Shown here: one piece after another, positions 1 to 16,717 of the stretch | How positions within the stretch are numbered: the first letter of the stretch is position 1 | How the letters are laid out: each line of letters starts with the position of its first letter | NCBI GenBank assembly: GCA_020057115.1 | Contig: JAGVGJ010000027.1 | Location: 5,058 to 69,057, forward strand | DNA length: 64,000 nt | Reading direction: 5' to 3' | Source: Candidatus Omnitrophota bacterium | GTDB lineage: Bacteria > Omnitrophota > Gorgyraeia > 2-01-FULL-45-10 | Program-made: the position numbers and the translations under genes | The notes under the pieces: generated by a model | Told to the model about the DNA's origin: nothing | Database searches by the model: none | What the model saw: only the letters and a program-made list of their open reading frames with translations

Positions 1-185
1 TCTTCTTAGGAGATGGCGTGAAGCTTATTGCCAGGCCTGAGAATGAAACATTTGCATGGTACCCGCGAGCGGAGATAATAGGGAAACTCGCGCTGGAAGA
101 TATAAAAAATAAAAAATTCACGACACCCGAGAAGCTGGAGCCGATGTATCTGTATTCGAAGGAATGCGATATCACAGGAAAGTAG
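1..185 (+). CDS. 3' end of an upstream CDS (partial, hypothetical). The open frame ends at TAG 183-185 and translates as ...GDGVKLIARPENETFAWYPRAEIIGKLALEDIKNKKFTTPEKLEPMYLYSKECDITGK*.
   Basis: Open frame with no stop from position 3 to the TAG at 183-185, immediately ahead of the alr start. No recognisable motif. Confidence 0.3.
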   Translation, partial: FLGDGVKLIARPENETFAWYPRAEIIGKLALEDIKNKKFTTPEKLEPMYLYSKECDITGK

Positions 186-186
186 A

Positions 187-1341
187 ATGACCTCAATAGC
201 GCTGAAGACCCGAAACGGCACGAAACACATCCGCCACAGGTCGACGTGGGCAGAGATAGACCTTAAGGCCGTAGAACATAATTTTAAACAGATAAAGAAG
301 GTCTCCGGCAAAAAGATCAAGGTAATGGCAGTCGTAAAGGCCAATGCCTATGGCCATGGCACTGTTGAGGTATCGAAAGTGCTTGAGCGTCTTGGTGTAG
401 ATTACCTCGGTGTTGCCACCACCGACGAGGCGATGCGCCTGCGCGACCATGGAATAAAGGCGCCGATACTTATCCTCGGGCATGTCCTTCCTCGGGAAGT
501 CAGATCCGCGATCGAGCACGACATAGCGCTTACCGTATCCAGCGAAGAGCTCTTGTCCGCTATCAGGAAAGCGGCGACTGGCGCAAAGAAAGCCAGGATA
601 CACATAAAGATAGATACAGGCATGGGCCGCCTCGGCATATGGCATGAAGAGGCGATAAACTTTATAAAGAACCTTGTCGCGGACAGGAATATAGTCCTCG
701 AAGGTATATATACTCATTTTTCAAGCGTAGGGCGCGATGACTTCTTCACCGCTTATCAGTTCGATTCTTTCGAGAAGATCCTGTCAAAGCTCGAAAGTTT
801 CGATATCAATATCCCCCTTAAGCACACAGCAAATTCGATCGCTACCGTGGATATGAAGCGCTCGCATTTAAATCTCGTAAGGCCCGGGCTTGTCATATAT
901 GGCATGTACCCAAAGGCTACATTCCAGAAGATCATAAACTTAAGGCCTGCCATGGCGCTCAAAACGAGGATTGTATTTATAAAAGATGCGCCGCCCGGAC
1001 GCTCCATAAGTTATGGCAGGACATATGTTACCCAAAAACATACCAGGATCGCTACGCTTCCCATAGGTTATGCTGATGGCTATGCCCGCAGCCTTTCCAA
1101 TAAGGCCGAAGTCCTTGTAAGAGGGCAGCGAGCTCCTGTGGTCGGTAAAGTTACCATGGACCAGACTATGATCGACGTCGGCCATATCAAGGATGTAAAA
1201 GTAGGTGATGAGGTAGTGCTCATAGGAAAACAGGGCAAAGATGAAATAAGGGCAGAAAAGCTCGCGCGTCTTGCCGGAACTATCGCTTATGAAACCGTCT
1301 GCTCCATCTCAAATCGCGTTCCCCGCATATACAAATATTAA
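187..1341 (+). CDS. alr: Alanine racemase (PLP-dependent)
   Basis: A 384-aa ORF with the classic PLP-lysine motif AVVKANAYGHG near the N-terminus. The C-terminal half is typical of Alr (…PIGYADGY…VGKVTMDQ…). Confidence 0.9.
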   Translation: MTSIALKTRNGTKHIRHRSTWAEIDLKAVEHNFKQIKKVSGKKIKVMAVVKANAYGHGTVEVSKVLERLGVDYLGVATTDEAMRLRDHGIKAPILILGHVLPREVRSAIEHDIALTVSSEELLSAIRKAATGAKKARIHIKIDTGMGRLGIWHEEAINFIKNLVADRNIVLEGIYTHFSSVGRDDFFTAYQFDSFEKILSKLESFDINIPLKHTANSIATVDMKRSHLNLVRPGLVIYGMYPKATFQKIINLRPAMALKTRIVFIKDAPPGRSISYGRTYVTQKHTRIATLPIGYADGYARSLSNKAEVLVRGQRAPVVGKVTMDQTMIDVGHIKDVKVGDEVVLIGKQGKDEIRAEKLARLAGTIAYETVCSISNRVPRIYKY

Positions 1342-1512
1342 TTTCCCGCTATGATGTAAAGATACAAAAAAGTTAGTATGCCTGGCTTGTTTTCTGTATA
1401 TAAGGTAGGTATACTATAATTAGAATAAAATATCGTTCTTTTAGGATCAAATAGTATCAATAGCAAACCATTCGAAAGAGTGGGTCATTCGCAAAGCTAA
1501 AGGGCCTTAATT

Positions 1513-1585
1513 CGTAATGCGTTGTGCGTGTTGCGTTGTGCAGTGATGTAACGCAATACGCAAAACACAACACGCAACACGAAAA
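1513..1585 (+). other. Long imperfect nested hairpin (cgtgttgcgttgtg … cacaacacgcaacacg, with an inner gcgtt…aacgc) in the alr/giant-gene intergenic leader
   Basis: Inverted repeat read directly from the sequence. Non-coding. Confidence 0.4.
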
Positions 1586-1647
1586 AGGTAGCCAGTTGCC
1601 GTTTTAAAGCTATCGTTAAAGCTTGGCAAAAAGAACGATAAAGCGAA

Positions 1648-1680
1648 CCCGCTCAAAATTAGAATGAGCGGGTTTTTTAT
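1648..1680 (+). terminator. Rho-independent terminator (cccgctca-N9-tgagcggg followed by TTTTTT)
   Basis: An 8-bp GC-rich stem plus a T6 run at 1673-1678. Confidence 0.7.
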
Positions 1681-1792
1681 TGAGCAGATAATTTACGGAG
1701 TCCGGAGGACGACGTAAATTATAGGCCGAAGGCCGTCTGCGAAATAATCCCGGAATATACCGCTTAAAGGCGTGTGGTTTGCAATATAAGAT

Positions 1793-4700
1793 ATGTTCCG
1801 GGATAGGCATCCTAAAAAAGGCTTGGCAATGGAGAAGAAAAATTTTTTTAGACAGATCGTGAAGGCTTTTATAAAGCATAGAGCGAGGGCGACTGCCCTG
1901 GTGGTCGCGATCGTTTTTTTCTTTAATACGATATATCTTGATGTAGCCTTGGCAGCAAAGACAGATGCGGGGCTTGCCTCTGTTTCAACACCAAGCGCCT
2001 CAACTTCTAAAACATCCCAGCCATATAAAGATCTTAATATCAAAGATTTTATATTACCAGACTATCTTGGGACAATAAAAGACAGATATATATCTCCATC
2101 CGCTTCAGGCGATGTGATGATCCACATCCAGGATGCCCACTGTAACCAGCCATGCCAGAATAAGATCGCCGACATCATCAGCTATCTAAACAGCGAATAC
2201 GGCATCAAGGTTATAAACCTCGAAGGCGGAAGCGGCGAATATGATACGGCCGTATTTACCCGAATAGGCGATATGAATATCCGCCAGAAGGTAGCCGAGA
2301 CTTTCGTCGGCGAAGGCATGCTTAATGGCGGGGAATATTATGCAGTGCTTAATCCTGAGAAGGCCTCTCTCTGGGGCTTAGAGGATGCCTCGCTGTATGT
2401 TAAAAACCTGGATGTCTATCGGGATTCATTGAAGCATAAAGACGAAGTGGACAAATACCTCAAGAGCCTGAACCATGCATTAAGCAGCCTGAAGGCAAAA
2501 ATGTATTCGAAAGACCTGCTTGAACTTGACCTGAAAACTTCAGCCTACAAGTCCGATAATATCGATATGCGTGCGTATCTCGCGTATCTTTGCGATGCAG
2601 CCGTGAGGAAGGGGATGGGTATAGACAAGTTTGCCGATATAGCAAGCCTAAAGAAGGCGATAGACCTGGAGAAGTCCATAGATTTCAGGACGGCCGATGT
2701 CGAGCGAGAAGAGTTGTTCAAGGCCCTGTCGAAACGCCTTTCAAAGAATGCTATGGAAGAATTCGCGGCTAAAGCCATTGAGTTTAAGGCTGAGCGTATC
2801 TCGCCCGAGGTATTTTACGGCTATATGCTTAGCAGGGCCAGGTCTAGCGGGCTTAAGACTGATAAATATCCGGAACTTGCGAAGTATCTGGCTTATGTAT
2901 CAAGCTATGCCTCTATAGATAAGATAAAACTTACCAAGGAGATAGAGTCGCTTGAAAACGCCCTTAAGGAATCATATTTCGAGAATGAGGGCCAGCGTGA
3001 GCTTGCAAGTCTCTCCAAGAACCTTATTATCCTCGCCAATATCTTTAATTTGAAATTATCCAAAGATGATTATGACTATTATCTGGCGAATGAAGGCAAT
3101 TTCGAGACAGCGCTTTATGCGAAGTTTATCCAGAAGAATGCCTCGATATACAAGATAGCGGATAGGCTGGATAACGGGGTATCAGATCTAGATACCTATC
3201 GAAAAGAGATATCAAAATTCTATGAATATTCGCTTAAGAGAGATGATGCGTTCATGAGGAACATGAAATTTGGTGGGGGTCCAGGATCCAGGGGCCAGGG
3301 TCCAGATTCCGAAGTCCGGGGGGCTGTTATCGTGACCGGAGGGTTCCATTCGGAGAACCTGTGTGAGCTATTCAAGAAGAGCGGGATCTCTTACATATCC
3401 ATAATGCCAAGCTTTAAGATAGAAGAAGGCTATGCATGTCCATACTTCAAACTGCTGGCAGGACAGACCGATGGCATGCAGAACAGGCTTTATTCTATAA
3501 TCTCATCCGAAACGCGCACTTCAGGCATGCAGATAGCCAGCATGCTCTCAAGCGCCATAGCCGAGGCGGTATGGGGCAAAGCAAGAGTTAATGCTTTCCG
3601 CGCCGCGGTAGAGATAGATACCATGGTTACGGAAGGCAAGCGCGTCCTCGTCGTAAATGATAAAGGCGAAGTCCTCAAAGATGCGCGAGGCGAAGAGCTT
3701 GTATTTGGCGAGGGCGAGGATAAGCCGATAAGGATTGCGGAGCTTTTAGGTATTCCGTCTGCCGAAGCGCCGGATGTTTATGCAGTACCGGTTCAAGCCG
3801 TAGCGCCTCAGAAAGCAGCGCCTGCGATAACTCCCGCGCCAGCTGCCCCTGTAATCCGGCCGCTTGGAGGAGCTGTTACCGGATGGCTCAAGCGGCTTAC
3901 ACCCGGGATGCCGGAATGGGCGAGGGCGCTCATCGCGGCTCCTATAGTGGAGGAAGGGCTTTATAGAGGGTTTCCGCTGCTGGCGTCAATGGCCACTGTC
4001 TTGATAGCAGGCGCAGGATTTAACTGGCAACTCATCATGATAGGCTCTGTCTTTTTCCAGATACCGGCAGGGCTAAAGTTTATAGCTGATCATTATCCTA
4101 AAGGCAGAGCGCCGCCGTCCGTTATTATCAAGATGTTACTCGCCCCTTCCATAGTCGCAATAATAAATGCCGTTATCCTGCCGCTAGTATTCACGAACCC
4201 GTTCATGTTCACAGGCGCTGCCATATTAAGCCACTTAACGATAAATCTTGCGGTCATGATCGCCAATGCAATATTCCCGAGCGTCAATATCGGCTTTGCC
4301 GCTATAGGGGTTAGCTCCGGTAGGCCAGGCCCTGCTACCTCTAATATCGAAACACTTAAGCGCATGATGAGAGACCATGCATCTGCCCTTGAGAGATCTG
4401 CCTGGGACAGGAGCGGAAGATTGGGAAGATACATGCTGTTGATGCGGGAGCTGTTGGATAAAGGAGTGTTCCGGGTAGACTTTAGGCCCGAGAACGCGAT
4501 CCTTACCGATAATGCCATGAGCGCCCAGACATTTGACTATGACAAGCTGTATGAGGCGACAAACGTCTCATGGGATGAGACTAAATACTTTATATTCGCT
4601 TCCGTGATACAGCCGGCCAGATACGTATTCAGGGAGCTCGCCCGGGACGCATCCGGGAAAGAGAGGGCTGATTGGTTCTCGGAATACTTCAATGATTATC

Positions 4701-7700
4701 TCGATGCCATGTTCCAGGCAGGCGTGGCCAAGAATATAATAGGCGCTCGTTCGAGCCGCCAGAGGGCGAGGATCGTGGGCCTGGTGGATGCATACAATAA
4801 GAACAGAGAAGATGTCTCGATACTGCAAAAGCAGATAGCCACTCTAAAGGGAAAGCTGAAAGAGCTTGAAAGCGCGTCCAGGTCGCCTCAGACAGACGCG
4901 GTAAAGCGAAGCATAGAAGAGAATATCTCGCGCATAGGCTCCGAATACGAGAAGCGGAGCTCGGTAATGAGGTTCATAAGCGATGATATCGAAACATTCC
5001 TCAAGGAAAGCTTCCAGAAGGTCCCGATGGCAAGGCTGGACCAGGCCGAGCGCGAATGGGTCTATTCCCATCCGAGGCTTGCCATGCTTAAACGCCTGGG
5101 GATGAACGATGAATATGACGCGTTGGTAAGGCAGAGGCGCGTTATATTCTCGATCGTCGGGCAAAAAGGGCTGGCGGCATCTGAAGTTAGGACAAGGCAG
5201 GGTGTCGCGGATAAGAATATCACAAGGCCAGTTGATATCGACAGCGGCCTGCAGCAGCTGCTTCGCGCAGGTGTGGGTAAGTTTGCCCAGGGAGGTATTA
5301 ACGGAGTATATGAGAGAAGGCAATTCATAAGCGACCTCAATGCTATGATCGTATCAATGAGACAAGGAATGAGTTTTGCGCAATCATTCGAGAACGCGAT
5401 GAAGGAGAAAGATGCGAACTATAAGCTTGCTTCTTCGTATCGCGACATCCTGACCATGCTTAAGGGCCCGGAAGGCGCAGGTATCGAGACGGCCGCCACC
5501 GCATTTATGAAGAGATTGGCAAGTCGAGATGCGGCCGCGTGGAGCCAGGTCAACATGGTCATGCCGGAAGGCTATGTATTTAAAATGCCGCTTGGCAAGG
5601 ACCTGACATTCCTTGAGTTCAAAGATATAGGCAAGATGCCGGCAAGACAATTGGCAGGCAAGGTGTTCAAGGTAGACTCGGCGACGTCAGCGCTTAGCGC
5701 AGTAGATATGGAAGGCGAAACAGGAAGGCTCTTCCTGTTCGCATTATCCCGCAGGCATGCCGGAGAACTCATAAGGATCGTTAATAGCACGGTCGATCTT
5801 CCTACCGGGGAAAGGGCGGCGATATCAACTATTATATTCCAGGACCGGGAACAGATAGCGATAACCAGAGATGCGCTTGGCCTATTTACAAGAGAGCTTG
5901 GCGGAATCCAGCGTCAGGCGGAATTCTTGAGCATGGCAGCCAAAGACGTGCCGGGCCTCATCAATCCGACAACTTATTTTGAGATAAACGGAAAGGTGTT
6001 CGGTTCCGCCAGTAAAAAGTTCGATGCAGCCCAGGAGGTCCGCAAGGAGATAGATAAGGACATAGGCAGGGAGAATGTTATACGAGAAGGCATGGAAAAA
6101 ATAGATGTTAAGATCAAGCTATCGAGTGCTCCTTTCGGAGCATTTACACCTTACAGGATTTTTGATAGCTCCGGGAACGGCATATCCGTGAAGCGTTATC
6201 AGAATGGCGTGATAACAATAGGGGCGAGGAGAAACGTGGACGGAAAGGTCATGGCGGTCGGGGTTGATGAGACGATGTCCGCAGAGGACCTTGCCGACGA
6301 AAATAGGTTGTACGGACTTATAGAGTCGCTTAACAGAAGGGCGCCCGGCGTTGACTCGGATGCGATGATACGTAAAGTATTTACAGGGATGGGGATCCTG
6401 CTTCCTGGCGTAGGAGAGCCTGCGCTTATGCACGCCGGATTTGGCATAGCGATGTCAGGCTATGCCTTCGCCTCAGTAGAGGATGTAGAAGCTCACAGGG
6501 TTGCCCTGCAGGGCGAGATAGATAAAGGTATCACGCCTAGTAGCTTCGTAAAAGATAAGGTAATAATTGGCGGCAAGGAGATTCAGATAGTAATACATAA
6601 GACAGTATTAGACAGGCTTGATGCCGTAAAGAAGACTTTGCAGGGCTTTATAGAAGAATGTATAAAGATACGCGGGCCGGATTATGAAGCTACATTAAGG
6701 ACTAAGCTTGCAGGAAAACCCCTTATATTCGACGCCCTCACCAGATCTCCAAATCTCTACGGTAATTGCCAGAATGACGGCTATATCTACATAAATACCA
6801 ATTCGCCTATCCAGCTTGATGCGGTAGGTGTCTCTCATGAGTTCATGCATGAAGCGGATATATTCACTGATTCGGAGACCGATGAACAGGCGCTGGCCAA
6901 GAAAGATGTCGAGCTGATGCAGTATGTCGGCATAGATATCGCAAAATTCATGGAAAGACTTAAAGACGTAACGATGCCTACCGGGTATCTTGCAGCTGCG
7001 CTCGCAGCTATAGCATCGGCTAGACCGGTTGGAACGGCAGCGCCCATGCGCTTGGAAGGGGAAAACCTGATAGCTAGCTGCGACCGGTCGAATGCATGCG
7101 ATCTGCCTAACAGGCACAGGTATGTGGAAGATCTTGTTAAAAAATTACGTGAAGGTAAGAGGGTGGAGGTCGTTTCATTGAATATCCAGAACTTCAAGAT
7201 GGAGTTCAATGATAGAGGTAATAGCCTGGGGCCTGAGGTGGGCCATTTATTCGGAGATTTCGGTATACAGGCGGTTGCCGACGCATTGCCGAAGGCCATA
7301 AAGGCTACGTTGGAAGAGAAAGGCATCAAGGGCAATTTCGCGGTTTATAATGACGGGAAAAGTTACTTTGTCATATTTGAAGATATGCCAGCAGGATTCT
7401 CGGCTACAGATGCCCTGGAGTCGATGCTTAAGGATGACAATACTGCCTTCAAACGCAGCGTTGTCAAGAGCGTCATCTCCGAGACCAAAAAGGTGAAAAA
7501 ATGGAATGATGAGGCAACAGCCGATTTCACCAAAAATTTCACGACCCGCAACTTCAACATGTATGCCGGCATCTCTGCGCCGGCCTCCCTGAAGGACGAA
7601 GTTGGTTCCGGCGTAGATATCTTAAAGCTCGCGCAGCGCGCTGTTGCCCAGGCGGATCTTTCGGCAAAGGCCGCCCAGATGAGGACCGGGGAGATACTCA

Positions 7701-10700
7701 ACGCGATATTCCAGCAGTCTGACATGGAGGGCAAGACAGAGGCAGATATCCGAAAGCTGATAATGGATCGTGCTCAGAGCGCAAGGACCATGGCGATAAG
7801 CGCATGGCGCCCGTACGGAGCGCATGTGGAAGATGAAATAGTGGCGCTTGCCAAATACAGCCCTAAAGGCGAGTATGAAGTCATATACAGGCCGATCCCG
7901 GAAGTTTATAACGAAGAGGCTACCTATGAGAATCTTATTAACCAATATAGAGTTGCGCTAAAAGCAAGAGATCCGGCTAAGGTCCTGAAGGCCAAAGAGA
8001 AACTCTACGATAAGATGCTATTCTATGTACCTGAGCCGTCTGTGAGGTCGAGGTATGTGCGGCCGATCATCGTAGGGATGGAAAGGTTCAGGGATGCCAT
8101 AAACGGATTGATAAGGGCCCCGCCCCAGGCCGATTGGTCCGGAACATTTCGCGTGGGAGGGGATGAATTCGCGAAAATCATATTTAATGCCAAGACCGGG
8201 GTCTTGAGGATATTGCGGTTTGACGCGAATAACCTTGGAAAGATGAATGCCGCATGGGGTAGCAGGATCGGTGACAGGGTGATCGATGATATGCTGCGGC
8301 TCATCGATAAAGTGCAGGATCCAAACGACCTGATGGAGTATATCTATAGGTATTTTGACAATACAAATGAACGGGGCGAGAATTTCAGGGACAATCCTCT
8401 GGAGCTGACCGATACGGATCATGCTTATATATTGCGGGAACTCGTCCGGTTAGACATAAAAGATACTTCAAGGTACTTAATTTCAGATGAGAGCGGCAGG
8501 AATTATCTGGTCAAAGTCCCACCGCTATCATTGACGCATCAGGAAACGGGCAGGTCTTATAAGACCGGGCCTTCGGTTTCTGTGGGGCTTGTCGAGATAG
8601 ATACTCACCTCATACCCGGAAAAGATAGAATGCGTGACTTTTCTCCGATCCAGGGCAGGGCCGATTCAACGGCCGAGACAGTTAAGTCATCTATAAAGAG
8701 ATACCAATCCGAGCATGATGGCGCCATCGATTTTGCTGAAGTCAACAGATTGATGGTCAATTCTCAGCCATTCAATACAAAGGCATTGACAACATTCGAG
8801 AGATCGCCTATCGACCCGCTCCGTGAAGAGTTCGCAAGGTTCATCGTATCAAAACTTGAAAAGCCGGCCGCGCCAGTTACACCCGAAATGGCGCCTGTTG
8901 TCCCCGCCGCGCCGGCGCTTGACTTTAATGTGCGCATAGAGGCAGTTTCATTTAAAGGCGTAGAAGCAGAGTCTTGGAATAAATATAAAGAGCTTCTTGA
9001 TATGGCGCAAGAGATCGTATCATCTATCCCGAGAAGCGAGCTATTGACCATTATCCGCAACATATCCGGCAATAAGACGCTGCGTTTTGAAGATATTTCC
9101 AAAGACATAGCCATATCGTATTTTGCGGAAGGAGTCCATAAGTATGTCTTCAGGGTCGCGTTTTCGACGAAAGAGGGCAAACCGCTCGAGATATTGCTTG
9201 CCGCTAAAAAAGAGAAGAACTTAAAAGATATAAGCGGACACGAACTGCAGAACTTGAAGAAACTGCACGGCAGAGGCGTCCCTAAATTCGGTGGGTCGTT
9301 CAGGTCTAAGGACGGCAGGTTGTGGTATCTGGAAGAATTTATCGCCGGAGATACGGTCGGCGCGCTCCAGAAGCAAGGTGCCTTGAAGGACAATGTCAAA
9401 CGCGGCATAGTGGCTACCATGTTATTGATCGCTACCGGACTTAACGGGATGATACCGCGCGACATGCATGCCGAGAATATAATGGTTGAGAAAGGAACGG
9501 GCAGGGTTGTGATGGTGGATCTAGGAGACAGGAGGTTACATATAACAGGCAAAGACGCCACCGATGCCCACAGGATGCTATTTATAGGCATGCTGTTGTC
9601 CCAATACGGCGTTAACGACAAGGAGAGACCTGAGCTTGACCATGTCTTCTTTGACGCCATAGCCAATGACAGATCTCTTTCCGAGGAAGGAAGCCTTGAA
9701 ATGCTGCAAAAGGCGTATGCGGAACTTGAGAAGAGAGGCCAGGCAGGCGTTGTTGGCTATCTGGCCAAAGAAGGGCGCAATATGTTCGTAAGCGTCGGGG
9801 CGCAGAATAGGGATGCTGCGCGCATGGACGATTTTGTAGGCACATTTACAAGAAGCCTCGGATCATACCTTGCTAAGTCAGGCCAGCTCCGCGGCCCGCC
9901 TATTATGCCAATATCTACAGCACCGGTTGCTGCCGCTGTCCCTGGTATTGTGAGCCTTACCGATAATATTGCTGAAGACATGGCGTTGCGCAATGTGATC
10001 GCTCTGGCAAGTTTCAGCCATGCGTCGAACAGGCTTACCGAAATAATGGGCATGGTGCAGATAGTTATGACGCTCACATCTGACATGATAGAGATACTAA
10101 AGAAAGAGAATGCGTCGGACGCCATGTTGAACGAGATGCGAGATATCCGAAGAGGCATGGTCGATGACGGTATAAGCAAAATAATAGAGCTTCACAAAAA
10201 GGCCATAGAACAGATGAGGAGTGGAGGCAAGAAGTATGCTCCTGCAGAAGTGTCTTCATGGAAAGAGGAATACCTTAAAGCGTACCGATCTTTCGAAGCT
10301 TCCGCGAAAAGGTTCGACGGCGTAAAAGAGAAGATGGCGGCCGCCGTAACCGATAAAGAACTGCCAAAACTTCTGAAATGGTATGGTGATGTCGCGCCCA
10401 AGCTTGATGACGTGCTTTCTGACAGGGCCAGTCTTATGACCGGCGAACTTAAAGATGAGTTGATCGATTTGCGCGAGGTCCTTGATCGGGAGCTCTTTAT
10501 AAAATTACTCCAGGCCGTTGTCAATAACCCTGCTACGGAAAGGTATTTCGATATTCGCATGCCCGACGGACCTGTCATGGTCAAGGGCAACAGGATATCG
10601 CTATCAGCACTCTTTACAGACCTTGCTAACAATGCCTATAAGTATGCCGAGAAGGCGCAGAAAGGGAATGCCAAAGTAATCATTGAGCTTGCACTTGAAA

Positions 10701-11935
10701 ACGGCAAGCCAGTGGTCAAGGTGACCGATAACGGCGAGGGCATAACGCCGGAGAAGCTGGCCCAGATGCAGCAGCCGTTCTTCACTACCGGAGGCACGGG
10801 TATCGGCCTTACCGAGTCGCGCATAATAGCCAAGGACCATGGCGGCTCGATCGATGTGCAGTCAGAGCCTGGCAAAGGCGCTATGTTCATAGTCCGCCTG
10901 CCTCTCGCATCAGCACCCGTCTCTATACCGCCTGTCGTCGAGGTCGCTGGGCTGGTGGCGCCGGCACCAGGCGAGAGGGAAGTGGTGAAGGTTGAAAAAG
11001 TGACTACGCCTTTGACAAAGGTGGAAGAGGCTTCCAGGAGGCGTGCGAAAAAGGCTGGCCTTGAGATAGCGGTTTACCGCAAGAATGTAGTTCCGATGGC
11101 TGAGGAATTTGCCAGGTCCAAGGATATCGAAACCCTCAGGCGCGAGCGAGATATATTGCAGCAAAAATTCGAAAGAGGCGAGACATTGCCTATTTACCAG
11201 GATGAAGCGTATGAGCTTGCTATAGAGATGCTAGAGGGTGCGGCGCCGGCTATAACTCCGAGCCAGGTCATCAAGACCGCACTTGCGGATGCGGCTCAGG
11301 GAACCGCGAATATAATAGTCATGGCAGGGTCTGAGATGTATGTTGCCCAGCAGACCAGCATAAACCGCACTATGGCACAGCAGCTCGGCAAGACGCAGAA
11401 TATCACGGTAGTTCCTTACAGCTATAAATACGGGGAGAATATCGATTGGAAGGCCGGCATAACAAAGGTCTTGTCTATGGCAGTGCAGGACCTTCACGCC
11501 AGGATCAAGAAAGGCGATGCTACTGCGCGCGTGATAGTATTTGTGCCATTCGACGGCGTGAAAGATGTGAAGGCGATGGTGGCAGGCATAGACGCCGATA
11601 TGGTGCCCAGGGTGACGGTCGTCGGCGAAGCCAATATGCCGATGGACGGAGGCATAGATAACATAGTCCATATAGCGTCAGGCGTAAGCATGCTTGAATA
11701 TGAAAGATTCCGGAAAGGCGATTACGGTGATGCTGTCATGCCGCAGGAGTCCAAGATGCGCTTAAATGACCTCATGAAGCTTCTGGTCGTAGATCCAGCC
11801 GCTATCGATATAGGAAAACATCCGGATATAATAGACAGGATCCTGGACGGCCTTACCGCCATACCGCTCAGGCCGATCACCGGAGAAATATCCCAGCGCA
11901 TAGAGAGTATGAAGAAAGTCCTTCAATCACTTTAA
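1793..11935 (+). CDS. Giant multidomain protein (3380 aa), a signalling/enzyme mosaic. Order of elements: N-terminal signal/TM anchor; TraB/GumN-like motifs; CPBP (CAAX/Abi) intramembrane protease-like domain; kinase-like DxxxxN loops; an HExxH motif; degenerate and canonical GGDEF motifs; HisKA-like H-box plus HATPase_c.
   Basis: A single uninterrupted 10.1 kb ORF. All antisense ORFs inside it are short and low-complexity. The motifs I read in the translation are listed below.
- Hydrophobic anchor ALVVAIVFFFNTIYLDVALA.
- MIHIQDAH … AVIVTGGFHSENL, which resembles the two signature motifs of the TraB/GumN family.
- EEGLYRG, FIADH and HLTIN, matching the three CPBP motifs EExxxR, FxxxH and HxxxN.
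- FRVDFRPENAIL and IPRDMHAENIM…VVMVDLGD, which are protein-kinase-like.
- VSHEFMHE, an HExxH motif.
- LNIQNFKMEFNDRGNSLGPEVG…YNDGKSYFVIFED, a degenerate GGDEF-like stretch, and FRVGGDEFAKII.
- ASFSHASNRLTEI (H-box-like) followed by DLANNAYKYA, DNGEGI and GTGIGL, the N, G1 and G2 boxes of a GHKL/His-kinase ATPase.
Alternative start at M13 (nt 1829). Confidence 0.85.
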   Translation: MFRDRHPKKGLAMEKKNFFRQIVKAFIKHRARATALVVAIVFFFNTIYLDVALAAKTDAGLASVSTPSASTSKTSQPYKDLNIKDFILPDYLGTIKDRYISPSASGDVMIHIQDAHCNQPCQNKIADIISYLNSEYGIKVINLEGGSGEYDTAVFTRIGDMNIRQKVAETFVGEGMLNGGEYYAVLNPEKASLWGLEDASLYVKNLDVYRDSLKHKDEVDKYLKSLNHALSSLKAKMYSKDLLELDLKTSAYKSDNIDMRAYLAYLCDAAVRKGMGIDKFADIASLKKAIDLEKSIDFRTADVEREELFKALSKRLSKNAMEEFAAKAIEFKAERISPEVFYGYMLSRARSSGLKTDKYPELAKYLAYVSSYASIDKIKLTKEIESLENALKESYFENEGQRELASLSKNLIILANIFNLKLSKDDYDYYLANEGNFETALYAKFIQKNASIYKIADRLDNGVSDLDTYRKEISKFYEYSLKRDDAFMRNMKFGGGPGSRGQGPDSEVRGAVIVTGGFHSENLCELFKKSGISYISIMPSFKIEEGYACPYFKLLAGQTDGMQNRLYSIISSETRTSGMQIASMLSSAIAEAVWGKARVNAFRAAVEIDTMVTEGKRVLVVNDKGEVLKDARGEELVFGEGEDKPIRIAELLGIPSAEAPDVYAVPVQAVAPQKAAPAITPAPAAPVIRPLGGAVTGWLKRLTPGMPEWARALIAAPIVEEGLYRGFPLLASMATVLIAGAGFNWQLIMIGSVFFQIPAGLKFIADHYPKGRAPPSVIIKMLLAPSIVAIINAVILPLVFTNPFMFTGAAILSHLTINLAVMIANAIFPSVNIGFAAIGVSSGRPGPATSNIETLKRMMRDHASALERSAWDRSGRLGRYMLLMRELLDKGVFRVDFRPENAILTDNAMSAQTFDYDKLYEATNVSWDETKYFIFASVIQPARYVFRELARDASGKERADWFSEYFNDYLDAMFQAGVAKNIIGARSSRQRARIVGLVDAYNKNREDVSILQKQIATLKGKLKELESASRSPQTDAVKRSIEENISRIGSEYEKRSSVMRFISDDIETFLKESFQKVPMARLDQAEREWVYSHPRLAMLKRLGMNDEYDALVRQRRVIFSIVGQKGLAASEVRTRQGVADKNITRPVDIDSGLQQLLRAGVGKFAQGGINGVYERRQFISDLNAMIVSMRQGMSFAQSFENAMKEKDANYKLASSYRDILTMLKGPEGAGIETAATAFMKRLASRDAAAWSQVNMVMPEGYVFKMPLGKDLTFLEFKDIGKMPARQLAGKVFKVDSATSALSAVDMEGETGRLFLFALSRRHAGELIRIVNSTVDLPTGERAAISTIIFQDREQIAITRDALGLFTRELGGIQRQAEFLSMAAKDVPGLINPTTYFEINGKVFGSASKKFDAAQEVRKEIDKDIGRENVIREGMEKIDVKIKLSSAPFGAFTPYRIFDSSGNGISVKRYQNGVITIGARRNVDGKVMAVGVDETMSAEDLADENRLYGLIESLNRRAPGVDSDAMIRKVFTGMGILLPGVGEPALMHAGFGIAMSGYAFASVEDVEAHRVALQGEIDKGITPSSFVKDKVIIGGKEIQIVIHKTVLDRLDAVKKTLQGFIEECIKIRGPDYEATLRTKLAGKPLIFDALTRSPNLYGNCQNDGYIYINTNSPIQLDAVGVSHEFMHEADIFTDSETDEQALAKKDVELMQYVGIDIAKFMERLKDVTMPTGYLAAALAAIASARPVGTAAPMRLEGENLIASCDRSNACDLPNRHRYVEDLVKKLREGKRVEVVSLNIQNFKMEFNDRGNSLGPEVGHLFGDFGIQAVADALPKAIKATLEEKGIKGNFAVYNDGKSYFVIFEDMPAGFSATDALESMLKDDNTAFKRSVVKSVISETKKVKKWNDEATADFTKNFTTRNFNMYAGISAPASLKDEVGSGVDILKLAQRAVAQADLSAKAAQMRTGEILNAIFQQSDMEGKTEADIRKLIMDRAQSARTMAISAWRPYGAHVEDEIVALAKYSPKGEYEVIYRPIPEVYNEEATYENLINQYRVALKARDPAKVLKAKEKLYDKMLFYVPEPSVRSRYVRPIIVGMERFRDAINGLIRAPPQADWSGTFRVGGDEFAKIIFNAKTGVLRILRFDANNLGKMNAAWGSRIGDRVIDDMLRLIDKVQDPNDLMEYIYRYFDNTNERGENFRDNPLELTDTDHAYILRELVRLDIKDTSRYLISDESGRNYLVKVPPLSLTHQETGRSYKTGPSVSVGLVEIDTHLIPGKDRMRDFSPIQGRADSTAETVKSSIKRYQSEHDGAIDFAEVNRLMVNSQPFNTKALTTFERSPIDPLREEFARFIVSKLEKPAAPVTPEMAPVVPAAPALDFNVRIEAVSFKGVEAESWNKYKELLDMAQEIVSSIPRSELLTIIRNISGNKTLRFEDISKDIAISYFAEGVHKYVFRVAFSTKEGKPLEILLAAKKEKNLKDISGHELQNLKKLHGRGVPKFGGSFRSKDGRLWYLEEFIAGDTVGALQKQGALKDNVKRGIVATMLLIATGLNGMIPRDMHAENIMVEKGTGRVVMVDLGDRRLHITGKDATDAHRMLFIGMLLSQYGVNDKERPELDHVFFDAIANDRSLSEEGSLEMLQKAYAELEKRGQAGVVGYLAKEGRNMFVSVGAQNRDAARMDDFVGTFTRSLGSYLAKSGQLRGPPIMPISTAPVAAAVPGIVSLTDNIAEDMALRNVIALASFSHASNRLTEIMGMVQIVMTLTSDMIEILKKENASDAMLNEMRDIRRGMVDDGISKIIELHKKAIEQMRSGGKKYAPAEVSSWKEEYLKAYRSFEASAKRFDGVKEKMAAAVTDKELPKLLKWYGDVAPKLDDVLSDRASLMTGELKDELIDLREVLDRELFIKLLQAVVNNPATERYFDIRMPDGPVMVKGNRISLSALFTDLANNAYKYAEKAQKGNAKVIIELALENGKPVVKVTDNGEGITPEKLAQMQQPFFTTGGTGIGLTESRIIAKDHGGSIDVQSEPGKGAMFIVRLPLASAPVSIPPVVEVAGLVAPAPGEREVVKVEKVTTPLTKVEEASRRRAKKAGLEIAVYRKNVVPMAEEFARSKDIETLRRERDILQQKFERGETLPIYQDEAYELAIEMLEGAAPAITPSQVIKTALADAAQGTANIIVMAGSEMYVAQQTSINRTMAQQLGKTQNITVVPYSYKYGENIDWKAGITKVLSMAVQDLHARIKKGDATARVIVFVPFDGVKDVKAMVAGIDADMVPRVTVVGEANMPMDGGIDNIVHIASGVSMLEYERFRKGDYGDAVMPQESKMRLNDLMKLLVVDPAAIDIGKHPDIIDRILDGLTAIPLRPITGEISQRIESMKKVLQSL

Positions 11936-12032: not shown

Positions 12033-13055
12033 ATGAGTGATTTGAGCATTCGAAATTCTGCGCGGGCCTGGTTGTGGCCCTTTTTTCTTATCCTGGCCGC
12101 CTTGTTTCTGTATTGCAACGGGCTTTTGAACGAAGATATATTCAGCCCGGATGCCGTCAGGATAGCCATGGACGGCGCCTATTTCCACGACCTCTTAAGA
12201 GATGCGCCGATATTCAATCTGTATGATTATACGATCCACTATTATGCTAGATACCCCGCTGTATCTTTAGGTTTTCGCGAGCCATTCTTCCAGTTTATCC
12301 TGGGCATCCTCTATCATATATTCGGCATAAGCATGTCTGTGGCCAAGCTCGGAGTGCTTATATTCGCGGCAATAGGCATAATCTTCTTCTATAAACTTGT
12401 GGAAAACATATATGGCCGAATAGCAGCCATACTATCGTCGCTTCTTTTTATCACCGCACCTTTTTTGGTCAGGTTTACGTGGATCCCGATGCTTGAGATG
12501 CCGGCATTGGCCATGTCATTAGCCACGATATACTATTTTTACAGATATGTTGAGCTAAAAGACAAGAAGGCGCTCGGTTTATTCTTTGTTATATTCGCGT
12601 TGTCGTTGTGGACCAAGAGGCTGACTTGGTTCATATTTATTTTTTGCGCCTTATATCTGACTGTTGCCGGAGGATGGAGGCTGTTCGTCAAGAAAGAGGC
12701 CCTCCGGTGGTTAGCTCTATTTATGCTCATGATCACGCCGCTTATAGTCATTTCAGCATGGCTTGGCGAGCCAACTATTAAACGCGCGGCTCCGCTGGCG
12801 AAGGTTGCCGTTACCGCGGACGCAGTAAAAAGCCAGGCGGCGATCAGAACGGTGGCTTTGCCAAAGGGCTTTGTTATGCGCGTTCCGGATTTTATCTATT
12901 ATTTAAAGGCCCTGTATAAATTCAACCTGACCTTGCCTGTCGTAGCGCTGTCTCTGGCCGGAGCGATCCTGGCGATATTTAAAAGAGACAGGAGGGCGAT
13001 ATTATTCGCATGCTGGATAATAGCCGTTTATATAACAATGATATCCATCAGGTAG
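12033..13055 (+). CDS. N-terminal membrane portion of an ArnT/PMT-like GT-C glycosyltransferase (GT39/GT83-like). It ends at an in-frame TAG at 13053-13055 that interrupts the gene.
   Basis: A 340-aa ORF with 8-10 predicted TM helices and composition typical of ArnT/PMT_2 family transferases. The same reading frame stays open directly after the TAG (13056 onward) and encodes two more hydrophobic helices (…WIPAFIALAGSIAAY…LLLAGLFAGCIIF…) that run into the next ORF. Confidence 0.6.
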   Translation: MSDLSIRNSARAWLWPFFLILAALFLYCNGLLNEDIFSPDAVRIAMDGAYFHDLLRDAPIFNLYDYTIHYYARYPAVSLGFREPFFQFILGILYHIFGISMSVAKLGVLIFAAIGIIFFYKLVENIYGRIAAILSSLLFITAPFLVRFTWIPMLEMPALAMSLATIYYFYRYVELKDKKALGLFFVIFALSLWTKRLTWFIFIFCALYLTVAGGWRLFVKKEALRWLALFMLMITPLIVISAWLGEPTIKRAAPLAKVAVTADAVKSQAAIRTVALPKGFVMRVPDFIYYLKALYKFNLTLPVVALSLAGAILAIFKRDRRAILFACWIIAVYITMISIR

Positions 13056-13211
13056 AAAGAGCCCCGGTATGCGATATGCTGGATACCGGCTTTTATAGCC
13101 CTGGCCGGCAGCATTGCAGCCTATCCGGCATCCCGCAGGAGATGGGCCCCGCTGCTTCTCGCAGGGCTATTTGCCGGATGCATCATCTTTAATCTTTATA
13201 AGGTTCAAAGG

Positions 13212-13748
13212 ATGAATGATTTTAGGGCCACCGGATTCAGGGCCGCGGCAGAATATGTGACAGAGGATCCCAGGGGGTCCACATTATTCTATGACGGGTA
13301 TGGTAACGGGGCTTTTGTATTCTGGGTGCGCAAATTTGATAAGGACAGGAAGACCATAGTCTTAAGAGGCGATAAGCTCCTGACATCTTCGGCCATATTC
13401 GATTGGAGGGATCTTAAGATACATGTCCGCTCGACCGAAGAGATATATGATATCTTCAGGCGGTTTGGCACGACATATGTAGTCGTCGAAAAATACGATA
13501 AGGCAGGGATACCGGTCCGGGCCATGCTAAGAGAAATGCTGAAGACGGGCAAGTTCCGCATGGTAAAAGAGCTGCCGATCGAAACATCCGATCCGGAGCT
13601 TAAAGGCCAGAGCATCTTGATATATGAAAGGCTTGAAGGTCCTGTGGCTCCGTATGGAGAGCTGGTATTGCCGTTACCGATAGTAGGCAAGGAGATAAAG
13701 CTGCCGATAGAGGACCTGGTGCAGGATGGAACGCGAAAGCGGAGATAG
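13212..13748 (+). CDS. C-terminal soluble (periplasmic-type) domain of the same ArnT/PMT-like glycosyltransferase. It lies in the same frame as 12033..13055, so the annotated Met is probably not a true start.
   Basis: Frame 0 is continuous from 13056 to 13748. Length and composition fit the C-terminal domain of roughly 560-aa GT-C transferases. Confidence 0.55.
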   Translation: MNDFRATGFRAAAEYVTEDPRGSTLFYDGYGNGAFVFWVRKFDKDRKTIVLRGDKLLTSSAIFDWRDLKIHVRSTEEIYDIFRRFGTTYVVVEKYDKAGIPVRAMLREMLKTGKFRMVKELPIETSDPELKGQSILIYERLEGPVAPYGELVLPLPIVGKEIKLPIEDLVQDGTRKRR

Positions 13749-13749
13749 C

Positions 13750-15156
13750 ATGGCGCAAGATAGGATCGTTATAATAGGAGCTGGCCCGGCCGGTATGGCG
13801 TGCGCTCATACGCTTACGGCAAAGGGCCGGCCATGCACCGTGATAGAGAAAGAGGATATGCCCGGCGGGCTATGCCGCACGCTCGACCATGGCGGATATC
13901 TATTTGACATAGGCGGCCATCGCTTTCTTACAAAGTCGGATGAGATCGACAAGCTGTGGCGTGAAGTTATGGGGGATGACATGCTTCACGTGAAGCGCCT
14001 GTCGAGGATATATTACAATAAAAGATATTTTGATTATCCACTCTCTTTCTTTAATACTTTCTGGAATCTCGGGCCTTTTGAAAGCGCGTTATGCGTAGCC
14101 AGTTATCTAAAGTCAAAGATATCGCGCGTCGATGATTCCACTTTCGAAGGATGGGTCATAAACCGTTTCGGAAAGCGCCTGTATGACATATTTTTTAAGA
14201 CCTACACCGAAAAGGTGTGGGCTGTAGCATGTACGGACATCTCTGCGGACTGGGCAAGCCAAAGATTAAGAGGATTGTCCTTGAGGATCGCGATAAAAAA
14301 GGCAATGCTCGGCATGAAGGGAAAGTCGCCGAAGACTTTATCCGGGGAGTTCCTTTATCCCAGGACCGGTCCAGGCGAGTTCTATTATAGGTTGAAAGAG
14401 CGGGTGTCGGAAGGCGGAGGGCAGTTTATATTTAAGAGAACATTGACCGGTATCCGGCATAACGCTAATAATGTGAGCTCGATAGAGGTCGAAGACGCTA
14501 GAACCGGCAAGAGGGAGGAGATGCCGGTAGAATATCTATTTTCCAGCATGCCGTTGCCATCCATGATAATGGCCCTGGACCCCGCTCCACCGGATGAAGT
14601 GTTGCAGGCCGCTAGAAATTTACGCTTCAGGGATTTTTTAGTGGTAAACTTGATACTGGACAAGGAGCGCATCTTCCCCGATCAATGGATATACGTGCAT
14701 TCACCAGAGGTCAAGCTCGGCAGGGTCCAAAACTATAAGAACTGGAGCCCGGCCATGGTGATCGATCCTAAGAAGACGTCTCTGGGGCTTGAATACTTCT
14801 GCACCGAAGGCGATGAGCTGTGGCGGATGAATGACGTAGACTTGATCAACTATGCGATTCGCGAGCTTGAGAGTATCGGAATAGTCTCCAGGCGCTATCT
14901 AGTGAACGGTTTTGTTGTCCGGTGCCAGAACGCTTATCCGATATATTCGCTGGGCTATCAAAAGAACATGGATATAGTGCGCGGCTATTTAAGCCGATTC
15001 ACGAATCTGCAGACCATCGGGCGGGGCGGGCTTTTTCGGTACGACAATTCGGATCATGCCTTATTGACGGGCATATACGCGGCAAAGAATTTTTTGGGCG
15101 CCGGGCATTATGATCTATGGAAGGTGAGCGCGGAAGACGGATATCTTGAATCCTGA
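13750..15156 (+). CDS. FAD-dependent oxidoreductase (amine-oxidase / UDP-galactopyranose-mutase-like Rossmann protein)
   Basis: N-terminal dinucleotide-binding motif IVIIGAGPAGMACAHTL…VIEKEDMPGG. Length is about 470 aa. Start moved to the ATG at 13750, just after the upstream TAG. Confidence 0.6.
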   Translation: MAQDRIVIIGAGPAGMACAHTLTAKGRPCTVIEKEDMPGGLCRTLDHGGYLFDIGGHRFLTKSDEIDKLWREVMGDDMLHVKRLSRIYYNKRYFDYPLSFFNTFWNLGPFESALCVASYLKSKISRVDDSTFEGWVINRFGKRLYDIFFKTYTEKVWAVACTDISADWASQRLRGLSLRIAIKKAMLGMKGKSPKTLSGEFLYPRTGPGEFYYRLKERVSEGGGQFIFKRTLTGIRHNANNVSSIEVEDARTGKREEMPVEYLFSSMPLPSMIMALDPAPPDEVLQAARNLRFRDFLVVNLILDKERIFPDQWIYVHSPEVKLGRVQNYKNWSPAMVIDPKKTSLGLEYFCTEGDELWRMNDVDLINYAIRELESIGIVSRRYLVNGFVVRCQNAYPIYSLGYQKNMDIVRGYLSRFTNLQTIGRGGLFRYDNSDHALLTGIYAAKNFLGAGHYDLWKVSAEDGYLES

Positions 15157-15178
15157 ACATCGCATAAGGCCGGGATAA

Positions 15179-15943
15179 ATGAATATACGAAGATACCTCA
15201 ATTTATTAAGGGAGATAGCATTCTCCCAGTTCAAGATCAAGGACCAGAGCACGGTTTTTGGTTTTGTCTGGAGTTTCCTGAACCCGCTTGCGATGCTGTT
15301 GATCCTTTACGCGTTTTTCAGCATGCGGATGGGTGCCGAGATCGAACATTACGCTATCTACATACTTATAGGGGTGATCCAGTATAATTATTTTGCCACA
15401 GCTACCAGCACGGCTATGCGCAGCTTGTATTCCATGAAACAACTCGCTACAAGCACTATATTTCCGAAAGATGTCCTGGTCGTGGGAGTTGTCGTAGCCA
15501 ACGCCGTAGAATTTATCCTCTCGATGCTTATCTGCGTAGTGATAGCCTGCGCTTCAGGCATCCCCATATCCTGGGCGGTATTCATGCTTCCGCTGGTCAT
15601 TATATTGCAAGCCATGACCGTGCTTTGGATAGGATTCATATTGGCCACCCTATTCGTATTTATCAAGGACCTTGGGCACATCTACGAAGTATTTTTACGC
15701 GTGCTCTTCTTCGTAACCCCGATATTCTACGCCTTGAGTTTCGCAGGTAACGGTTTGCCGAGATATGTGCTCCTGGCTAATCCGCTTACCCATCTGATAG
15801 GTTTTTCCAGGGACATAATAATAAATGGCAAACCCTTTCCCGCGGCACCATTTGCTATCCTGCTATTCGCGAATCTGATATTGTTGCTGTTATCGATAAG
15901 GCTATTTAAAAAGTTCGAGAAAAAATTTGCGGAGTATCTGTAA
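15179..15943 (+). CDS. ABC-2 type polysaccharide/O-antigen exporter permease (Wzm/KpsM/TagG-like)
   Basis: A 254-aa protein with 6 TM helices. The N-terminus FKIKDQSTVFGFVWSFLNPL is typical of ABC-2 permeases. It sits immediately upstream of an ABC ATPase. Confidence 0.75.
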   Translation: MNIRRYLNLLREIAFSQFKIKDQSTVFGFVWSFLNPLAMLLILYAFFSMRMGAEIEHYAIYILIGVIQYNYFATATSTAMRSLYSMKQLATSTIFPKDVLVVGVVVANAVEFILSMLICVVIACASGIPISWAVFMLPLVIILQAMTVLWIGFILATLFVFIKDLGHIYEVFLRVLFFVTPIFYALSFAGNGLPRYVLLANPLTHLIGFSRDIIINGKPFPAAPFAILLFANLILLLLSIRLFKKFEKKFAEYL

Positions 15944-15944
15944 T

Positions 15945-16679
15945 ATGGAATTTGCGATCAATATAAAAGACGGGTGCAAGGCCTTCGCGCTGGAGAGGTA
16001 TCACGCTACAATGTTCAGGGCCATAAAGAGGAAGATCCTCAGGCGTCCTTTTTCCGCGCAGCATTTTTTGGCTCTTCAGAACATTAACATCGAAGTATCA
16101 CCCGGAGAAAAGATAGGCCTGGTGGGGGATAACGGATCCGGAAAGACCACTTTATTGCGGACCATGGCCGGCTTGTATGAATTGAGCGGAGGGCACATAG
16201 AGACTCGGGGCACAAAGATGATCCTGAGCGGTTTCGGGCTCGGGATGTGCGACGAGTTAAGCGTGGAAGAGAATATATATCTATACGGTACTATATATGG
16301 GATCGGGCGCGATGATATCAATAAAAATTTTCACGAGATAATAGAGTGGGCCGCATTACAGAAGTTCGTAGGCGCGAAACTCAAGACGCTGTCATCGGGA
16401 ATGGTGACCAGGCTGGCGTTCTCGATAAGCAGGCATGTCCAGGCCGACATATATCTACTTGACGAGGCGCTATCTGCCGGCGACAAACATTTTAAGGATA
16501 AGTGCGGTCAGGTATTTGAGGATTATAAGAAGGGCCCAAAGACGTTCGTGGTCGCAACGCATGACATGGAGTTTGTGCGCAGGTTCTGCTCAAAAGCCCT
16601 GTGGCTGCACAAAGGCAGCCAGATGGCATTCGGGGACGTGGAAAGCACGCTTAAGCAATATGCCGATTCCAAAGCCTAA
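15945..16679 (+). CDS. ABC transporter ATP-binding protein (Wzt/KpsT/TagH-like, short form)
   Basis: Walker A GDNGSGKTT, signature LSSGMVTRLAFS, Walker B IYLLDEALSAGD. The ATG at 15945 overlaps the permease stop. Confidence 0.85.
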   Translation: MEFAINIKDGCKAFALERYHATMFRAIKRKILRRPFSAQHFLALQNINIEVSPGEKIGLVGDNGSGKTTLLRTMAGLYELSGGHIETRGTKMILSGFGLGMCDELSVEENIYLYGTIYGIGRDDINKNFHEIIEWAALQKFVGAKLKTLSSGMVTRLAFSISRHVQADIYLLDEALSAGDKHFKDKCGQVFEDYKKGPKTFVVATHDMEFVRRFCSKALWLHKGSQMAFGDVESTLKQYADSKA

Positions 16680-16717
16680 TGGCTCATGTCCTCGACAGGA
16701 AGATAGCGGTGTAATCT

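Follow-up and report, generated by a model that had tools for sequence, protein, structure and literature searches.

A divergent four-helix CPBP-type module inside a very long protein of an Omnitrophota bacterium

Abi/CPBP proteins have a core of four transmembrane (TM) helices bearing the motifs EExxxR, FxxxH and HxxxN (PMC3578759). This domain corresponds to helices TM4 to TM7 of Rce1 and MrtX, in which further helices lie N-terminal to the core (PMC11980579). Here we study a module of this type that lies inside a giant protein encoded by a Candidatus Omnitrophota bacterium (GTDB lineage Bacteria; Omnitrophota; Gorgyraeia; 2-01-FULL-45-10). The DNA analysed, which we call the window, is a stretch of 64,000 nucleotides (assembly GCA_020057115.1, contig JAGVGJ010000027.1, positions 5,058 to 69,057 of the forward strand), and all nucleotide positions below are counted from its first letter. 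The giant open reading frame occupies interval [1793..11935] of the + strand; it is uninterrupted and encodes 3380 amino acids (aa). The module, whose limits are those of a family profile, occupies interval [3863..4312] of the same strand, that is, 150 residues, from aa 691 to aa 840. A prediction made earlier from the sequence alone, the original prediction in what follows, had placed three motif strings in one giant reading frame, and they are all there and in frame: EEGLYRGFP starts at E720, FIADHYP at F763 and HLTINLA at H814. The block that it had drawn around them, at 3940-4330, is in the right place, and the one that the profile yields is slightly wider.

The likeness of the module to known CPBP/Abi proteins (PF02517) lies in the three motifs, which are carried by helices 1, 2 and 4 at the canonical spacing, and in a profile match that is full-length. 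The differences are of several kinds. The module lacks the additional TM helices that Rce1 and MrtX have at their N-terminal end; it is always found inside proteins of 0.6 to 5.8 thousand amino acids (kaa), where as many as three copies may be present; its conserved flanks, AVTxWLKRLTPxM and hPxLxLGxAxI, are its own, and so is a signature in the third TM helix (P785, N792 and P797); finally, individual module sequences score under the Pfam threshold. That CPBP domains normally stand alone, as the original prediction remarked, is fair in general, yet this subfamily was found only embedded, in 26 representatives out of 26.

Two partnerships described in Firmicutes, Abx1-CovS and SpdC-WalK, also tie a CPBP-fold domain to kinase signalling; here the tie takes the form of co-occurrence in one polypeptide (PMC3578759, PMC5854430). 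Unlike the fused module, Abx1 and SpdC are separate proteins of ~300 aa that contact the sensor kinase through TM helices, and no DHp/HisKA domain can be recognised next to the block in the window protein. Another comparison is with PrsW, a peptidase distantly related to CPBP proteins (PMC3482391). Its fusions with toxins have in common with our protein a membrane peptidase inside a multidomain chain, for which processing or release in cis has been proposed (Zhang et al. 2012, PMC3482391), and they are, by analogy, the closest precedent for the idea of self-processing to which we come below. PrsW differs in being a separate family, with 8 TM helices, placed at the N-terminus with the toxin domain after it, whereas the module, with four helices, lies in the interior of its protein; no PrsW Pfam match was obtained with the fragment, the family members or the consensus.

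A further comparison is with the giants of the same phylum. They too are long and multidomain; their N-terminus resembles a signal peptide, their TM clusters are scattered, and their Pfam content is of signalling type (HATPase_c, GNAT, kinases). The papers that describe them propose C39 and S8 peptidase domains as possible processors and count TM helices (West-Roberts et al. 2023, bioRxiv 10.1101/2023.11.21.568195; 2026 preprint, bioRxiv 10.64898/2026.06.07.730766); neither paper mentions CPBP/CAAX modules, and the window protein, at 3.4 kaa, is well under the 10 kaa and above on which they focus. Our literature search found no paper linking CPBP/CAAX domains with Omnitrophota or their long proteins. 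The CPBP fold and its motifs are already known, and annotation pipelines label two relatives of our protein as CPBP. The apparent novelty is a CPBP subfamily reduced to the core, which exists nowhere but inside very long multidomain proteins, at times in several copies, and is coupled there to modules of kinase type.

The first line of evidence for this assignment comes from profiles. The isolated fragment matches a single Pfam family, PF02517 (Rce1-like), over positions 6-92 of the 93 positions of the profile. The consensus of the family reaches 24.5 bits (E=3.4e-5, profile positions 6-93 of 93), above the gathering score of 22.4 bits. Of 20 family members, 6 match the same Pfam family at E<0.01, and no other Pfam family recurs among them. 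In NCBIfam, the model CPBP_JDVT_MrtJ is weakly matched by three of these 20 members (best E=9.7e-4), and CPBP_M949_0222 by one. One relative, P0042, has a precomputed PF02517 match and bears the NCBI name “CPBP family glutamic-type intramembrane protease”; the NCBI name of another, P0059, is also CPBP. Alignment to PF02517 had been put forward as a check of the assignment, and its outcome is divided: the family consensus exceeds the cut-off, which the window copy on its own does not reach. No CPBP structure came out of sequence searches of the PDB, whether the query was profile A1, profile A2 or a CPBP-like consensus written by hand; the matches that they gave to ketol-acid reductoisomerase and to a K2P channel were judged spurious.

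The motifs themselves provide a second line of evidence. At the spacing of the module, the window translated in six frames contains the triad EExxxR...FxxxH...HxxxN/D a single time. The triad arises in 1 out of 2000 composition-preserving shuffles of the giant protein, and is not seen once in 52,176 aa from relatives without the block.

The third line is the conservation of the block among its relatives. An alignment of 20 sequences, 28-46% identical to the window copy and with a mean column identity of 34%, has seven positions that are invariant in all 20: E720, E721, F763, H767, P785, H814 and N818. Residue R725 is kept in 19 sequences, P797 also in 19, and N792 in 16, while A716 and P717 are present in at least 90% of them. 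Leaving aside P785 and the AP that precedes EE, the conserved columns are the published catalytic and signature residues of CPBP proteins. The subfamily adds features of its own: a consensus G-x-A-V-T-x-W-L-K-R-L-T-P-x-M ahead of the core, a loop G-x-R-x-P-P after the His of motif 2, and the signature P...N..ILP in helix 3. With PF02517 as sole Pfam match, a consensus above the cut-off and invariant columns that coincide with catalytic residues, the CPBP/Abi identity advanced by the original prediction stands: it is well supported that nucleotides 3863-4312 encode a genuine, very divergent CPBP/Abi (Rce1-like) domain consisting of the four-helix core only.

The predicted structure agrees with this layout. 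A confident AlphaFold2 model computed from the 20-sequence alignment, with a predicted local distance difference test (pLDDT) of 85.6 and a predicted template-modelling score (pTM) of 0.78, supersedes an earlier run with 3 sequences, whose pLDDT was 51. It consists of a short amphipathic helix followed by four long helices of 22 to 31 residues, and the hydropathy peaks are concordant. The amphipathic pre-helix AVTGWLKRL (aa 694-702, [3872..3898]) is specific to the family and lies outside the Pfam CPBP model. Core helix 1 (aa 708-738, [3914..4006]) carries motif 1, EEGLYR (aa 720-725, nucleotides 3950-3967), with the EE about one third of the way into the helix. Core helix 2 (aa 745-766, [4025..4093]) has motif 2, FIADH (aa 763-767, nucleotides 4079-4093), at its end. 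Core helix 3 (aa 775-799, [4115..4189]) contains the family-conserved P785, N792 and P797, and core helix 4 (aa 803-827, [4199..4273]) has the HxxxN motif, HLTIN (aa 814-818, nucleotides 4232-4246), near its middle. The module ends with a juxtamembrane tail, FPSVNIGFAAIGV (aa 828-840, [4274..4312]), of low pLDDT and with the family consensus h-P-x-L-x-L-G-x-A-x-I. The original prediction counted 4-6 hydrophobic helices, a number that hydropathy and AlphaFold2 bring down to four TM helices and one short amphipathic helix. It also named motifs lying outside membrane helices as a finding that would speak against it: all three are inside a predicted membrane helix or at the end of one.

A profile built on three sequences was searched exhaustively against 1.84 billion representatives, with a threshold of E<=1e-3. 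The search yields the 26 representatives mentioned above, all in proteins of 591-5785 aa, and no stand-alone CPBP protein of ~250 aa is among them. In the complete sequences of this set the block is internal and its position variable. Every protein whose source is named comes from Omnitrophota, and the number of copies per protein goes from one to three. Proteins P0055, P0057, P0058, P0061, P0068 and P0069 have two or three copies, hundreds to over a thousand residues apart, and the extra copies keep the motifs. Other types of search were less productive: word-indexed homolog searches found nothing, starting either from the block and its surroundings (300 aa) or from the alignment of 20 sequences, and tblastn of the fragment or of the family consensus against plasmids and phages gave one irrelevant match or none. 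A related-locus search with profile A3 returned 3 loci, one of which (L002, CAZNEE010000006.1) belongs to a metagenome-assembled genome labelled “uncultured Planctomycetia bacterium”; there the block lies in an open frame that spans positions 1-6429 of the locus, or at least 2143 aa. Either the family may extend beyond Omnitrophota, or the label of the bin may be wrong.

Most carriers of the block share with the window protein an N-terminal domain, a kinase-like region and a C-terminal domain. Among homologs of the N-terminal domain, P0002 has the same block with 45% identity and all motifs kept, and P0042 has a weaker copy. In relatives, bona fide Ser/Thr kinase domains begin 150-400 aa downstream of the block, and GNAT domains are also found downstream; in P0002, the kinase begins just after the block. 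In many members, the CPBP modules are the only TM clusters besides the N-terminal helix.

The other TM clusters of the long relatives were checked for hidden CPBP motifs, and most are unrelated; the one at aa ~4800-4920 of P0057 may be a degenerate CPBP copy. Two homologs of the N-terminal domain that lack the block, P0007 (aa ~660-800) and P0045 (aa ~690-830), have HExxH motifs (HEYTH, HEIGH) adjoining the TM cluster that follows this domain. The fragment P0072 (aa ~330-400) contains only partial CPBP pieces, along with an M50/S2P-like module HEIGH...NLAPFMP inside a TM cluster. It would seem, from such motifs, that a membrane-associated protease-like module of some kind follows the N-terminal domain in several members.

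We consider now the orientation of the module. Since it has four helices, both flanks of the polypeptide should be on the same side of the membrane. The mean number of lysines and arginines per sequence, computed over the family, is 3.25 in the N flank, 1.6 in the loop between helices 2 and 3, and 2.05 in the C flank; it is 0.00 in the loop between helices 1 and 2, and 0.05 in the loop between helices 3 and 4. By the positive-inside rule, flanks that are rich in these residues would be cytoplasmic. The cytoplasmic side is likewise suggested by the downstream modules, which rely on ATP or acetyl-CoA. The N-terminus of the giant protein conflicts with this arrangement. Its hydrophobic helix (aa 33-56, [1889..1960]), which has the look of a signal peptide or a signal anchor, has a hydrophobic stretch of 23 residues with 11 lysines or arginines ahead of it and ALA-AK at its end, the AxA being kept in homologs. 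If this is indeed a Sec signal peptide, the N-terminal domain would be exported. With 1+4 helices, the cytoplasmic flanks, the ATP-using downstream domains and the signal-peptide-like N-terminus contradict each other by parity: they cannot all hold, and the problem is family-wide. The 2026 Omnitrophota preprint reports the same difficulty for long proteins of type “SP+TM” (bioRxiv 10.64898/2026.06.07.730766).

Assuming that the two flanks are indeed on one side, the four-helix module would be the main membrane anchor of the giant polypeptide. Because the catalytic residues are invariant in every copy, the module is also most likely an active endopeptidase. We infer from these observations a combined role, which we hold to be probable: the module would be both a membrane anchor and an active glutamic endopeptidase with its site in the leaflet that faces the flanks. 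In this scheme, the module, usually located downstream of the N-terminal domain of ~580 aa and upstream of the kinase-type modules, would have its catalytic Glu, His, His and Asn residues in the half of the bilayer nearest the side of the flanks, and would cut a peptide close to the membrane, on the side where the attached domains lie. The module might act on a segment of its own chain or of a sister molecule, or else on a separate partner.

The original prediction suggested self-processing as one outcome of the embedding, and we retain it as a plausible idea, though one of rather low probability. It is favoured by the fact that the module is never found alone, by the multiple copies spaced along the chain, by the conserved flanks outside the canonical domain, and by the precedent of PrsW-type peptidase domains fused to polymorphic toxins (PMC3482391). 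The juxtamembrane tail, aa 828-840, is a candidate recognition or cleavage segment. One can go further and conjecture that the modules are autoprocessing units acting in cis, each cutting its own AVTxWLKRLTPxM helix or hPxLxLGxAxI tail and releasing kinase, GNAT or ATPase modules; this more specific scenario is speculative, and we would not bet on it.

The combined role of anchor and peptidase has to be weighed against several unfavourable facts. Taken alone, the window fragment scores 18.7-19.8 bits against PF02517 (E=2.1e-3 and 9.5e-4), below the gathering score; Foldseek gives no match to solved CPBP structures; and several bacterial CPBP proteins act without the residues in question (Abx1, PMC3578759; most CPBP proteins of S. 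aureus, PMC13559823). The low score and the lack of any match, by sequence or by Foldseek, to a solved CPBP structure could be taken to mean that the block is not a CPBP domain at all, but a generic four-helix membrane anchor whose motifs are due to chance or convergence, especially as hydrophobic segments are prone to spurious profile matches. We find this very improbable: the sole Pfam family matched is covered over its whole profile, independent NCBIfam CPBP models are matched by other members, the invariant columns are the catalytic ones, their spacing and their placement on the helices are those of the published core (PMC3578759), and just one shuffle in 2000 reproduces the triad. If the domain is accepted as CPBP, it could still be of the sorting type, like myxosortase, and merely be fused to the giant protein, its task being to take a lipid-modified sorting signal off the C-terminus of other, secreted proteins. 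Proven CPBP sorting enzymes do exist, MrtX being one (PMC11980579); like MrtJ, the protease of the JDVT-CTERM system, it is a CPBP glutamic intramembrane endopeptidase, and it is to MrtJ that the few weak NCBIfam matches of the family go. These scores are far under the curated cut-offs, however, and the window copy has no NCBIfam match. MrtX and MrtJ are moreover stand-alone enzymes with 7 TM helices and dedicated Cys-tagged substrates: the giant protein has no Cys-containing C-terminal tag, and no obvious tagged substrate is found among the neighbour genes, which makes a sorting function hardly credible here.

A more serious competitor accepts the CPBP fold and gives up the proteolysis. The bundle would then tether the chain, and perhaps sense or regulate the kinase modules to which it is fused, so that the giant protein would be a “Rosetta-stone” fusion of a partnership of the Abx1-CovS or SpdC-WalK type. 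The context lends itself to such a view, with a HATPase_c domain (1.9e-20) and a kinase-like region in the same polypeptide, the Ser/Thr kinases of relatives at a short distance downstream, immediately so in P0002, and blocks that are the only TM clusters of many members. So does the literature: CovS is controlled by Abx1 with no need for the catalytic residues of Abx1 (PMC3578759), WalK is controlled by SpdC (PMC5854430), and most CPBP proteins of S. aureus are seemingly not proteases (PMC13559823). What this view leaves aside is that the catalytic residues are invariant in 20 copies out of 20 at 28-46% identity, extra copies included, whereas LnsB, a non-catalytic CPBP protein, has degenerate motifs (PMC13559823); all motifs are intact here. 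In the window protein, in addition, the HATPase domain is ~2100 aa away from the block. On balance we see a non-proteolytic anchor or regulator as possible though rather unlikely, and keep the combination of anchor and peptidase as our preferred reading.

As to the rest of the giant protein, its name at JGI is [quoted passage not shown]; NCBI lets it begin at M13, for a length of 3368 aa. The conserved N-terminal domain (aa ~60-640, [1970..3712]), with motifs HIQDAH, NLEGG and TGGFH, is common to at least 49 Omnitrophota proteins found by a homolog search with the first 1000 aa, and is also present in most carriers of the CPBP block. Its invariant residues are QDAH (aa 113-116), EG (aa 144-145) and GGFH (aa 516-519). 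The window copy of this domain has no Pfam match, and for 2 of 10 members there is a weak match to PF04187 (ChaN, Tiki superfamily), with E=0.014; the pattern GxxH...E...GxxH is reminiscent, at the level of sequence, of enzymes of Tiki/TraB type. Between this domain and the CPBP module, directly upstream of the latter, lies a linker rich in Pro and Ala (aa 655-693, [3755..3871]).

Further along, the kinase-like region (aa 2389-2721, [8957..9955]) is conserved in six CPBP-bearing relatives and has a weak Pkinase match in the window protein. In the full giant protein, no Pfam domain exceeds the threshold other than the histidine-kinase-type ATPase domain HATPase_c (aa 2933-3039, [10589..10909], Pfam E=1.9e-20), the GGDEF-like and Pkinase-like matches being weak. 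The two GGDEF-like ones, at 7100-7303 and ~8207-8335, are partial and below threshold, with E about 5e-3; they account for the JGI name, and neither is a convincing cyclase domain. A string HEFMH, of the form HExxH, at 6836-6850 (aa 1682-1686) lies in a region that is blank in Pfam, and may be a zinc-metalloprotease-like site. The C-terminal domain (aa 3158-3380, [11264..11932]) has no Pfam match and is conserved in five CPBP-bearing relatives, P0052, P0053, P0058, P0061 and P0066. The protein ends in ...KKVLQSL, with neither a Cys nor a TM tail.

Upstream of the giant gene there is an alanine racemase (187-1341). Downstream, interval 12033-18013 contains a PMT_2-type glycosyltransferase, an amine-oxidase-like flavoprotein, an ABC-2 permease with its ATPase, and a GT2-like protein, a set that looks like a cell-envelope glycan cluster. 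Of the neighbour genes, six fall into unrelated Pfam families and two match nothing in Pfam. Nothing in this neighbourhood resembles a bacteriocin locus, and bacteriocin immunity, one of the usual functions that the original prediction listed for CPBP proteins, was rejected on that account.

For the insertion of the very long Omnitrophota proteins, their anchoring and their possible cleavage, the published pointers are limited to C39 and S8 peptidase domains, and the TM helices have been counted and left unassigned. Identifying a recurrent TM cluster of these proteins as a CPBP core with intact catalytic residues provides a concrete candidate for anchoring and processing, and one that can be mutated. 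With its four helices, the module may be the smallest natural CPBP unit, and it informs what the fold minimally needs. The fusion of a CPBP domain to modules of kinase or histidine-kinase type fits the genetic links between Abi domains and histidine kinases in Gram-positive pathogens. The comparison of family members also exposes a topology paradox that is directly testable. If the conjecture of autoprocessing were true, some of the many TM clusters so far unexplained in the giants of Omnitrophota would turn out to be protease modules, and the giants themselves would be processed polyproteins.

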